From Gemmatimonadales bacterium (GTDB taxonomy: Bacteria; Gemmatimonadota; Gemmatimonadetes; Gemmatimonadales; GWC2-71-9): a DNA stretch of 54,490 nt. The stretch is taken from contig JBBQFH010000020.1 of assembly GCA_038321865.1 (NCBI GenBank), positions 1 through 54,490 on the forward strand. Reading direction: 5' to 3'. The notes beneath the pieces are model-generated. The model was not told where the DNA came from. It saw nothing but the letters and a program-made list of their open reading frames with translations, and did no database searches. Shown here piece by piece: positions 12,684-14,924 of the stretch (the stretch's first letter is position 1; each line of letters begins with the position of its first letter). The position numbers were made by a program, and so were the translations under genes.

Positions 12684-12710
12684 TTAGCACTCACGCGTGC
12701 CGAGTGCCAA
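12684..12710. promoter_or_regulatory. CIRCE operator (HrcA site)
   Basis: TTAGCACTC-N9-GAGTGCCAA, one mismatch to consensus, between the promoter and groES. Confidence 0.93.
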
Positions 12711-12722
12711 TGACTGGGCGGT

Positions 12723-12750
12723 AAGATAAGGTCTGCCCCGCCAGAGTCAA
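12723..12750 (-). promoter_or_regulatory. Sigma70-type promoter of groESL
   Basis: TTGACT-16-TATCTT just upstream of CIRCE. Confidence 0.7.
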
Positions 12751-12820
12751 GCGCGGTGCTTGACTTTGACCGCGTGGGACCCGACCTTCCGCCCTTCCCG
12801 TCAACGCCCGGAGAAACTGC

Positions 12821-13924
12821 ATGTTGGTGCTCGGCACGCTGCTGGCCATGTCGCTCGGCGCGGACACCCTCCGTCCGCTGCCTCGGCGCCTCGACACGCC
12901 CACGGTCAGGGTGGCGATCGATTCGTCCCGCCATACCGTGACCATCGTCACCGGCCCGTTCGACCTGCCGAACGAGATGCCGATGGACGAGATGATGGAG
13001 ATGGGCCACGACATGGCGCACGACGCACCGGTCCACCGGTTCGTCTGGCCGGTGGACGGCTGGCTGCGCGGCTTCGAATGGTCACTGGTCGACGCCCAGG
13101 GCAACACCGTGCCCCGGGAGGTGATGCACCACCTCATCATGGTGAACTTCGACCGCCGCCAGCTCCTTTACGACGCCGCCGAACGCCTGATGGGCGCCGG
13201 CAGCGAAACGGAAGACGCCACGGTGCCCAGGACGATCGGCATCCCGCTGACGGCCCGGACGCGGCTCGGCTTTTACATCAATTGGCACAACTCGACCGGC
13301 AAGGACCTCACGGGCGTATCACTCAAGCTGACGCTGCTCTGGACGCCGAGGAACCAGAACCCGCGCCCGGCCAATGCACTGCCGATTTACATGGACGTGA
13401 ACCTGACGGTCGGCGGCACCAACACCTTCGACGTGCCGGTAGGAAAGTCGAGCAAGGCGTACGAGTTCACGCTGCCCGTCGGTGGCAAGCTGCTCGGCAT
13501 CGGCGGGCACCTGCACGATTACGGGACCTCGGTGCGCCTGGAGGACGCCGCGACCGGCAAGGTGCTCACTCGCGTCATCGCGACGCGGGCGCCGGACGGC
13601 AGGGTGCTGAAGGTCAGTCGTCGGCTGTTCGGCGTCACCGGTGACGGGCTCGCGCTGAAGGGCAATCACCGGTACCGTGTCGTCGGCGAGTACGACAATA
13701 CGAGCGGCAAGCTGCGGCCTCAGGGCGCGATGGCCCACCTGGTCGGGCTCTTCGTGCCGGACGACCTCAGCCGGTGGCCGGCGATCGATCCGAACGACTC
13801 GACGTTCCGGCTCGACATGGCCTCGCTGAAGGCGGATCCGGCAGGAGAACCGCTCATCGCATCGGAAGCGGGCCAGGCCGGGAGAGACTCGGACCATCAG
13901 CACGGAAACGCCGCGAAGCCCTGA
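12821..13924 (+). CDS. Putative secreted type II copper monooxygenase-like (PHM/SURNod19-like) protein
   Basis: Hydrophobic N-terminus; H103H104, H156, H230-x-H232 and M304; Met/His-rich loop; GGAG SD. Confidence 0.65.
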   Translation: MLVLGTLLAMSLGADTLRPLPRRLDTPTVRVAIDSSRHTVTIVTGPFDLPNEMPMDEMMEMGHDMAHDAPVHRFVWPVDGWLRGFEWSLVDAQGNTVPREVMHHLIMVNFDRRQLLYDAAERLMGAGSETEDATVPRTIGIPLTARTRLGFYINWHNSTGKDLTGVSLKLTLLWTPRNQNPRPANALPIYMDVNLTVGGTNTFDVPVGKSSKAYEFTLPVGGKLLGIGGHLHDYGTSVRLEDAATGKVLTRVIATRAPDGRVLKVSRRLFGVTGDGLALKGNHRYRVVGEYDNTSGKLRPQGAMAHLVGLFVPDDLSRWPAIDPNDSTFRLDMASLKADPAGEPLIASEAGQAGRDSDHQHGNAAKP

Positions 13925-13964: not shown

Positions 13965-14924
13965 CTATCCGACGATCCGCCGGGCGCCGACCCACCGTTT
14001 GAACCACCACTTGCCGTAGGGATCGGTCGCGCTCAGCCGGCTGGTCTGCACGCCGCTGCTCGCGCTGTGGATGAAGCGGCCGTCGCCGACGTAGAGCCCG
14101 ACATGGGTGACGCCCTGGCCCGAGCTTGAGAACGTGAGGAGGTCACCCGGCTGAAGTGAGGCCAGCTCGCGGCCGACCTCGCGGCCGCGGGTCGCCTGCT
14201 CCCCGCTCGTTCGCGGCAGGGCGATGCCGTGACGGGCGTAGGCGTACTGAATCAGCCCGGAACAGTCGAAGCCACGGCCATCCTCGCCGCGGCCACCGAG
14301 GCGGTACCGTGCCCCGATCGCGGAATCCGCAGTGGCAATGACACCGTCGAGCAGCCGCGCGGCGTCGGCATGCGTGAGCGAACTGCCCGCTGTCCAGAGC
14401 GCCGGCGTGACCCGTTCAGGCACGCCCGCCGGGGAAACCGTCCGACCCACGGCGCCGAAATTGGCCCCGATGCGCACCGAGAGCTCCAGCCCCGAGCGCG
14501 CGGCCGGCCGGAACTCGCGGTAGCGGCCTTCGAGACCGAGCGAGAGGAAGGGCACCGGAATCAGCTCGTACCCCACGCCCGCCGACCAGGCATTCCACCA
14601 TTTTTCGGCGCCGCTGGTGCCGAACCCACCGGCGACGCCCGCGACCGCGTAGGCCCCGGGCCGGCCACCTCGAAAGAGCGAGAGGTCGGCCATCGCGCCG
14701 AGCAGGCGCCCATCCCTCGGCGCCGGGCCGTGCATGAGCGTGCCACCCAGCGACAGGGCCGCGGGACCGAACACCGGCTGCACCCAGGCAGCTCCCAGCG
14801 ACGTCCAGCCACCGTTGTTGAACAGCCGGCCCAGCTGAAACGCGACGCCCTGCGCCATGGCCGATGGGGCGCCGGCGAGGGCGAGCACGAGGACCAGCGC
14901 GATCCGGGCCGGGCGAATCATCAC
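13965..14924 (-). CDS. NlpC/P60 (C40) peptidase with N-terminal predicted beta-barrel
   Basis: Signal peptide, amphipathic strands, then Y..GG..GFDCSGL..Y, LPRTS..Q, PGDLL.F, HVGLY.G.G.FIHS. Confidence 0.85.
   Translation of the reverse strand: MMIRPARIALVLVLALAGAPSAMAQGVAFQLGRLFNNGGWTSLGAAWVQPVFGPAALSLGGTLMHGPAPRDGRLLGAMADLSLFRGGRPGAYAVAGVAGGFGTSGAEKWWNAWSAGVGYELIPVPFLSLGLEGRYREFRPAARSGLELSVRIGANFGAVGRTVSPAGVPERVTPALWTAGSSLTHADAARLLDGVIATADSAIGARYRLGGRGEDGRGFDCSGLIQYAYARHGIALPRTSGEQATRGREVGRELASLQPGDLLTFSSSGQGVTHVGLYVGDGRFIHSASSGVQTSRLSATDPYGKWWFKRWVGARRIVG

Follow-up and report, generated by a model that had tools for sequence, protein, structure and literature searches.

A bacterial protein family with a predicted PHM/DBH fold appears to have lost the third CuH histidine

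PHM and DBH are the two-copper enzymes behind amidated hormones and noradrenaline. Here we describe a gene of a Gemmatimonadales bacterium whose product is predicted to share their fold, and whose family conserves the CuM triad and the His103-His104 pair, i.e. five of the six PHM ligand positions, while the canonical third CuH histidine appears, from alignments, to have been lost throughout, being replaced mostly by Met and, in the branch of the query, by Ala, Gly or Asn. The reading that we put forward, and of which we are about half convinced, is a periplasmic copper oxygenase with an intact CuM site, a rewired CuH site, a closed active site, reduction by a cupredoxin and a non-peptide substrate. 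The window mentioned below is the whole stretch of DNA analysed (54,490 nucleotides), and papers are cited by PMC number.

The gene, its distribution and its upstream region

The gene, hereafter the query, and the elements around it in the window are the following:

12821-13924, plus strand: gene for a PHM/DBH-fold (double jelly-roll) protein of 367 aa, with ATG start and no Cys; model pLDDT 89.5
12810-12813, plus strand: GGAG ahead of the 367-aa ORF, from the sequence
12821-12862, plus strand: hydrophobic N-terminus, residues 1-14 (model helix 2-13; hydrophobicity test)
12977-13036, plus strand: Met/His-rich loop, residues 53-72 (composition; low pLDDT, 60-75)
12760-12788, plus strand: likely own promoter of the query gene (-35 TTGACT, 17-nt spacer, weak -10)
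12723-12750, minus strand: sigma-70-type promoter of groES-groEL (promoter scan; conserved in aligned loci)
12684-12710, no strand assigned: CIRCE operator in the groES leader (palindrome; part of groESL)
13965-14924, minus strand: NlpC/P60 peptidase, N-terminal region beta-barrel-like by eye, heading a conserved operon

Sequence comparison indicates that 12821-13924 is a real, conserved gene. The open reading frame, His103 and His104, His156, His230 and His232, Met304, the Met/His-rich loop, the hydrophobic N-terminus and the absence of cysteines had all been correctly located in a preliminary description of this DNA, which had also taken the product to be exported. Export is likely: residues 1-14 are predicted as a likely Sec signal peptide, with a best 9-residue Kyte-Doolittle mean of 2.4, and a value of at least 2.0 was reached within the first 60 residues in 89 of 105 distant relatives, while a stretch from inside the protein, taken as control, gave 8 of 105. 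These 105 representatives, used throughout, were chosen from 149 new ones, with fragments and proteins longer than 460 aa dropped. The mature part is Cys-free in 120/120 close relatives, but only in 48/105 distant ones. In the loop, nine of 20 residues are Met or His versus 27 of 367 across the whole protein, and M55, M61 and H67 are conserved in 206, 209 and 211 of 214 close relatives; Met/His-rich loops and tails are widespread across the family.

A homologue search gave 1327 matches among 5946 candidate proteins, with 729 clusters (50% identity) reaching E 1e-10, and a second search yielded close relatives only. The family was found in 79 of 151 Gemmatimonadota genomes, with 1-4 matches each, and in 65 of the 72 belonging to the query's own taxonomic family. 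The source genome holds no paralogue of the query gene and no PF03712 match. Plasmids searched with two family proteins (P0001, P0247) gave no match, and a metagenome scan with a third (P0192) returned three loci with housekeeping neighbours. In a first set of 46 genome loci, 45 are labelled Gemmatimonadota or a subgroup, and the remaining one, labelled Bacillota, is syntenic and 78% identical. Neighbours were compared in a second set of 46 diverse loci, made up of 6 from the first set and 40 others, and vary widely. As side observations, three loci (L034, L035 and L037) carry tandem duplicates of the query gene beside groES, and one protein (P0122) consists of two complete fused copies of the family.

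As previously described, the query gene faces away from CIRCE-groESL: groES-groEL lie on the minus strand, divergent from the query, and the two promoters are back-to-back. A possible role in stress had also been raised at that stage; one through CIRCE did not find support. The palindrome at 12684-12710 is the only match in the genome with at most 3 mismatches; hrcA was found in the same genome. Relative to the groES promoter the operator is downstream. Its distance to groES is 46-64 nt in every one of the 29 loci where both occur, and in 22 of these 29 it is more than 1 kb from the query orthologue, mostly because a DUF1207 gene intervenes. Since CIRCE stays with groES and downstream of its promoter, the operator would serve groESL, leaving a heat-stress role for the query unsupported. 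Heat-shock co-regulation was consequently rejected, as CIRCE is neither at nor just downstream of the query promoter. For the latter, the TTGACT element, 17-nt spacer and weak -10 can be read in six of six compared intergenic regions, one copy falling outside the aligned block; a consensus promoter scan did not flag the 12760-12788 element.

Other features of these loci may be mentioned. The DUF1207 gene (e.g. L006:4986-5816), with an outer-membrane-type C-terminal motif, is divergent from the query orthologue in 29/46 loci of the first set and has no match in the source genome. One genome shows two CIRCE-like palindromes (L040:5637 and 5714) between groES and the query orthologue. Downstream, the NlpC/P60 operon is convergent with the query gene in 38/46 loci of the first set, and also includes three unannotated ORFs and a UbiA-family gene, along with what we take to be pantothenate kinase-like and biotin ligase-like genes.

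Predicted fold and related proteins

Searches of Pfam (up to E 1) and NCBIfam with the 367-aa query gave no matches, nor was there a significant match in the PDB by sequence or profile. With the PF01082 and PF03712 profiles, none of 125 family members matched at E 0.05, and the query did not match at E 1. An AlphaFold2 model built on a 125-row alignment (pLDDT 89.5) consists of two beta-sandwiches, and Foldseek placed PHM (3mlj, E 2.4e-10) first, followed by DBH (4zel, 4.6e-7), PNGase F and viral double jelly-rolls. After structural re-alignment of these matches, 26 PHM/DBH entries came out on top with Z values of 13.7-17.1, the next family reaching at most 8.1. The PHM-like fold anticipated in the preliminary description is thus borne out by the model, and the query protein can be assigned a predicted PHM/DBH fold. 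PHM and PNGase F have been placed in one clan, PHM being termed eukaryotic (PMC8812541).

With PHM (1PHM, 6ALA, 6AMP) the query shares the double jelly-roll, over residues about 30-320, and a His-His pair followed by the CuM His-x-His and Met in identical order. It differs in lacking disulfides, a His corresponding to H172 and a Glu ahead of the Met, in the Gly, His and Val that occupy the R240, N316 and Y318 positions, in an identity of only 10-12%, in the closer fit of its model to the closed conformer, and in the addition of the Met/His loop, a GxET motif and a C-terminal arm. DBH (4ZEL, closed chain A) has in common with it the fold, an H-N-P stretch after the third-ligand position and, in the model, the closed arrangement; however, the query family has Asn, Ala or Met at H333, lacks DOMON and dimerisation domains, and is bacterial.

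Closer to home are canonical PHM-like proteins (PF03712, Cu2_monoox_C; L107-L110, alignment A4) present in 4 of 101 genomes of the same phylum, to which the query family aligns with an HHalign probability of 96% (E 3.9e-9):

L108:409-1770, L109:487-1845 and L107:1351-2958: canonical six-ligand PHM-like proteins, with 944 relatives for L108

Unlike the query family, these keep all six ligands and the Glu-Met motif, and those of L107-L109 carry an N-terminal CxxCH. Given that the query family shows neither the Glu-Met motif nor the third CuH His, nor any match to the Pfam profiles, it should not be filed as a PHM/DBH member. Its modelled fold and CuM site suggest that the query would work like PHM/DBH.

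The likeness to the plant SURNod19 family (PF07712) pointed out earlier did not translate into membership. The query has no match up to E 1, the best family member scores 15.2 bits versus a cut-off of 25, and one distant member reaches E 0.0095 over 27 residues; this separation is at the profile level only. Among named Atlas clusters, the nearest (0.93, 0.91) is one in which 13% of the members are PF07712, and SURNod19 is a neighbour in feature space only. A different Atlas cluster, with 162 members and commonest in Nitrospirota (rank 2, score 0.93), is possibly a sister family. The literature searched (listings and abstracts, few subscription journals) contained no account of the family or of a characterised bacterial PHM; within it, this unannotated family, its ligand change and its predicted closed state are undescribed.

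Conserved ligand positions and family-specific residues

In rat PHM, CuH is bound by H107, H108 and H172, and CuM by H242, H244 and M314. The positions relevant for the comparison are listed here:

13127-13132, plus strand: His103-His104, CuH pair at the PHM H107/H108 position (conservation)
13205-13207, plus strand: Glu129 of the family-specific GxET motif, an invariant acid
13280-13282, plus strand: Asn154, homologous to the third CuH histidine, DBH H333 and PHM H172 (alignment)
13286-13288, plus strand: His156, homologous to DBH H335 (alignment)
13508-13516, plus strand: His230-x-His232, CuM histidines (aligned with the HxH of canonical proteins)
13730-13732, plus strand: Met304, CuM methionine (104/105 distant representatives)
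13760-13828, plus strand: conserved C-terminal arm, W319-P320 to helix 327-335, with D332 (conservation, model helix)

Conservation of six ligands had been expected, and five of them stood, with H103, H104, H230, H232 and M304 present in 102-105 of the 105 distant representatives (102, 103, 105, 102 and 104, respectively); the sixth, H156, is kept in 56. For H103 and H104, the counts in the whole set are 437 and 438 of 441 sequences. HHalign misaligned the stretch containing this pair, which sits at the start of a strand in the model and was matched to PHM through motif and fold instead. The residue before Met304 is Gly in 58 and Ala in 42 of the 105, the canonical Glu being gone; this Glu precedes the CuM Met in 36/36 canonical bacterial rows and also in PHM and DBH.

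We take N316 and Y318 of PHM to be substrate-site residues alongside R240. The corresponding positions in the family (n = 105) are G228 (Gly in 83, Ser in 19), H306, which is variable, and V308 (Gly, Ala or Val), so that, as far as the alignment goes, the peptide-binding residues of PHM are absent from the family. R240 of PHM is the substrate carboxylate site (PMC12164859).

Besides the ligands, R113, R122, E129 and T130 are invariant in the family. The column of Glu129 holds Glu in 101 and Asp in 4 of the 105 representatives, and one or the other in 439 of 441 sequences. In a mean-field covariation analysis (441 sequences, effective number 199; noisy) the pair D132-L231, at rank 19, ties the GxET loop to the CuM HxH. 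Glu129 is a candidate bridging or second-sphere residue. The C-terminal arm (W in 92, P in 95 and D in 96 of 105) shows weak covariation couplings to the N-domain and may clamp both domains.

Loss of the third CuH histidine at position 154

The register around the third ligand was fixed using the canonical six-ligand bacterial proteins of the same phylum as a bridge to DBH. The bridge profile placed its His-Tyr-x-Asn on the His-Tyr-His-Asn of DBH. The leading His of the DBH stretch, at chain position 294, corresponds to H333 with an offset of +39; the same offset gives H412/H414 for the HxH. H333 is listed among the CuH ligands of DBH, and H335 is outside the six ligands listed there (PMC4846438). 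HHalign of the query family against the bridge is gap-free from P136/G140 to N157 (probability 95-96%), and leaves N154 opposite the ligand His and H156 opposite the DBH H335 position; the distance from the anchoring Gly/Ala to the 154 position is 14 residues in both. The equivalence of H156 with PHM H172, which had been assumed earlier, has hence to be abandoned in favour of DBH H335, with N154 taking the H333 position.

Among the 105 distant representatives, residue 154 is Met in 67, Ala in 21 and Gly in 8, while the 214 close relatives have Ala (203), Asn (6) or Met (5). His is found at this position in none of 534 rows, some of which are duplicates; the third CuH His is kept in 36/36 rows of the canonical bridge family. 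The gap-free placement of N154 on H333 and the absence of His in the 534 rows together argue for a family-wide loss of the canonical histidine. A FastTree tree shows one large clade with mostly Met154 and a second one, containing the query, that alternates between Met and small residues (deep supports are mixed). Changes among Asn, Met and Ala occur in relatives 66-79% identical, which suggests that the ligand at this position is dispensable. In PHM, single-ligand mutants, H172A included, keep at most about 5% of activity, H-abstraction being about 12,000-fold slower in H172A (PMC12164859).

It could be argued that H156 is a shifted third CuH ligand in the branch of the query, which would then be a conventional two-site, open-cleft monooxygenase. 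This residue points to the same side of the strand as 154 and is invariant among the 214 close relatives, and a coupling between F110 and G150 fits a register with 156 opposite H104. Nevertheless, it is missing in 49 of 105 distant members, some members of the close branch have Ala or Ser at both 154 and 156, and the residue equals DBH H335 within the shared H-N-P motif; moreover, the predicted strand stops at 155 and the model prefers closed forms. We regard this enzyme with a shifted H156 as quite unlikely.

A candidate replacement ligand

If position 154 does not supply the third ligand in the query's branch, the Met/His loop offers a candidate:

13019-13021, plus strand: His67, candidate stand-in third CuH ligand (covariation, clade counts)

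In the covariation analysis H67 is the top partner of residue 154 (rank 20), and A66 and A69 are partners as well; the method cannot tell strand register 258 from 260. Counting without gaps from the invariant P77, His67 is present, within the query's clade, in 26 of 53 members with a small residue at 154 versus 2 of 32 with Met154. In independent pairs, the comparison of His at 66-68 with residue 154 gave 7:2 with 8 ties (p 0.18, not significant). By eye, W76-P77-V78-D79 of the query pairs with L86-P87-V88-D89 of PHM, which would bring residues 67-69 near PHM Y79, presumably a neighbour of H172. These data are suggestive of His67 being a plausible stand-in CuH ligand, in which case copper loading may not be the only task of the Met/His loop.

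Closed versus open conformer

Closed conformers are known for PHM (6ala, PMC6123673) and DBH (4zel chain A, PMC4846438), the former described in that paper only in a one-copper mutant. The query model fits closed forms (6ala_C, Z 17.1, rmsd 3.0; 4zel_A, Z 16.7, rmsd 3.6 over 254 residues) better than open 1phm (Z 15.3, rmsd 4.5). A canonical six-ligand bacterial protein folded in the same way fitted open and closed forms equally (Z/rmsd of 22.5/3.0 with 1phm, 22.7/3.3 with 6ala_C and 22.1/3.8 with 4zel_A), so a general bias of the method does not account for the closed fit of the query in this comparison, the preference being defined by one control protein, metal-free models and rmsd values instead of ligand distances. 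The query protein is thereby predicted to adopt the closed domain arrangement. It is disputed whether the reaction of PHM and DBH involves two coppers that stay 11-14 A apart or a binuclear site in a closed state (PMC4846438, PMC12164859).

An invariant Glu suits harder metals, and one could think of a one-metal or non-copper protein in which His103/His104 and the CuM residues share a single ion, or Fe or Zn is bound with Glu129, with a function in hydrolysis or binding. In favour of this, the one-copper closed mutant (6ala, H108A PHM) is the closest structural match, Glu129 is invariant, and hydrolases, PNGase F among them, have this fold too. Yet PNGase F resembles the query model much less (Z about 8), and the invariant Met304 plus four invariant His exceed what a single ion needs and favour copper, which makes this explanation very unlikely in our opinion. 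A query homodimer predicted with Zn showed no contacts in the output.

Gene neighbourhoods: copper and lipids

The query's own neighbourhood contains no copper or lipid genes. Blue-copper genes are found near family members in 7 of the 46 diverse loci, in two settings, six of the seven being the same block, in which a family member is accompanied on the same strand by a plastocyanin-like lipoprotein, a phosphodiesterase and a VTT protein. The seventh is a copper island:

L086:765-9234: a family member surrounded by two cupredoxins, DUF5676 and CtaG

One of these cupredoxins has a twin-arginine-like leader and the other is fused behind a larger domain. The source genome encodes two blue-copper proteins elsewhere.

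The recurring lipoprotein block faces an operon of genes that are serine-palmitoyltransferase (Spt)-like, GNAT, epimerase and PAP2:

L098:6089-10393, L087, L096, L103 and L104; in the source genome, C27:39-3219 and C10:98186-99788: Spt-like/GNAT/epimerase/PAP2 operon

In bacteria, ceramide is made by Spt, an acyltransferase and a periplasmic reductase (PMC11087976). The names CerS-like and CerR-like given to the GNAT and epimerase genes reflect only their place in the operon and their domains, no model having named either, and the Spt-like profile match is sub-threshold (530 versus a cut-off of 640 bits). The GNAT gene of the operon is present in 96/151 Gemmatimonadota genomes, and in 71/72 of the query's taxonomic family, which suggests, at the sequence level, that sphingolipids are widespread in Gemmatimonadota. 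A family member lies within 12 kb of the GNAT gene in 23 of 79 genomes, 22 of them from one syntenic family; in the remaining genome (G113, of another family) the member immediately precedes the Spt-like gene, in the same orientation. Members beside the Spt-like operon belong to the Met154 clade and not to that of the query, and in the source genome the plastocyanin-like lipoprotein (C10:98186-98650) and the Spt-like operon are on other contigs than the query. Co-occurrence with the ceramide-synthase-like gene (74 of 79 positive genomes) was dropped as support, since it follows taxonomy and is confounded by kinship; within one family (f2) this gene is in 2 of 6 family-positive genomes versus 5 of 31 overall.

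In two further loci (L045:88-11182 and L044) a distant member is found amid glycosyltransferases, a sulfatase-type protein, an NTP transferase, a TPP enzyme and an aminotransferase-like ORF, a cluster that, with gene labels partly presumed, resembles phosphonate biosynthesis.

These neighbourhoods also bear on another function for the monooxygenase fold, that of a periplasmic Cu(I) buffer, chaperone or cuprous oxidase, in which His2Met sites and the Met/His loop and tails would capture Cu(I) without any organic substrate. His2Met is a soft, Cu(I)-type ligand set, and Met154 creates a second such site in 67 of 105 distant members; the widespread Met/His-rich loop and tails, the member in the L086 copper island and the missing PHM substrate residues point in the same direction. 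Bean Nod19, a fold-level look-alike, rises with copper excess (PMC3882225). On the other hand, none of the annotated neighbours (70 of 99 picked, in the 46 diverse loci, plus L086) is a copper ATPase, Cus or multicopper-oxidase gene, and the invariant R113, R122, E129 and T130 along with up to 4 matches per genome are more typical of an enzyme family. We consider such a Cu(I)-handling role possible, if somewhat unlikely.

Proposed mechanism

In the copper oxygenase that we propose, the exported enzyme would activate O2 at the conserved His230-His232-Met304 site, and the second copper would be held by His103 and His104 together with Met154, or with His67 in the branch of the query, the two sites being predicted to form a closed, near-binuclear centre. 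From the GxET loop at the domain interface, Glu129 could extend to the CuM site, where it would bridge, add a fourth ligand or relay protons, and the C-terminal arm would hold the domains together in place of disulfides. Because a heme module is missing from the protein, the electron donor would be a small blue-copper lipoprotein. As substrate, a small hydrophobic molecule of the envelope is likely, and not a glycine-extended peptide, a ceramide-type lipid being the only named candidate, and a weakly supported one. A bolder proposal, which we judge unlikely, is that a large branch of the PHM/DBH fold is natively a closed, coupled-dicopper enzyme with a Met/loop-His swap, a bridging Glu and a blue-copper donor, of which a sub-branch hydroxylates a periplasmic ceramide-type lipid.

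Concluding remarks

A natural, disulfide-free bacterial family that does without a histidine essential in PHM and is modelled in the closed state would make the dispute between separate and binuclear coppers directly testable with protein produced in E. coli, and could provide a simple test case for the mechanism of PHM and DBH. It would also add an unannotated family of putative copper proteins, found in about half of the sampled genomes, to the biology of a common soil phylum.
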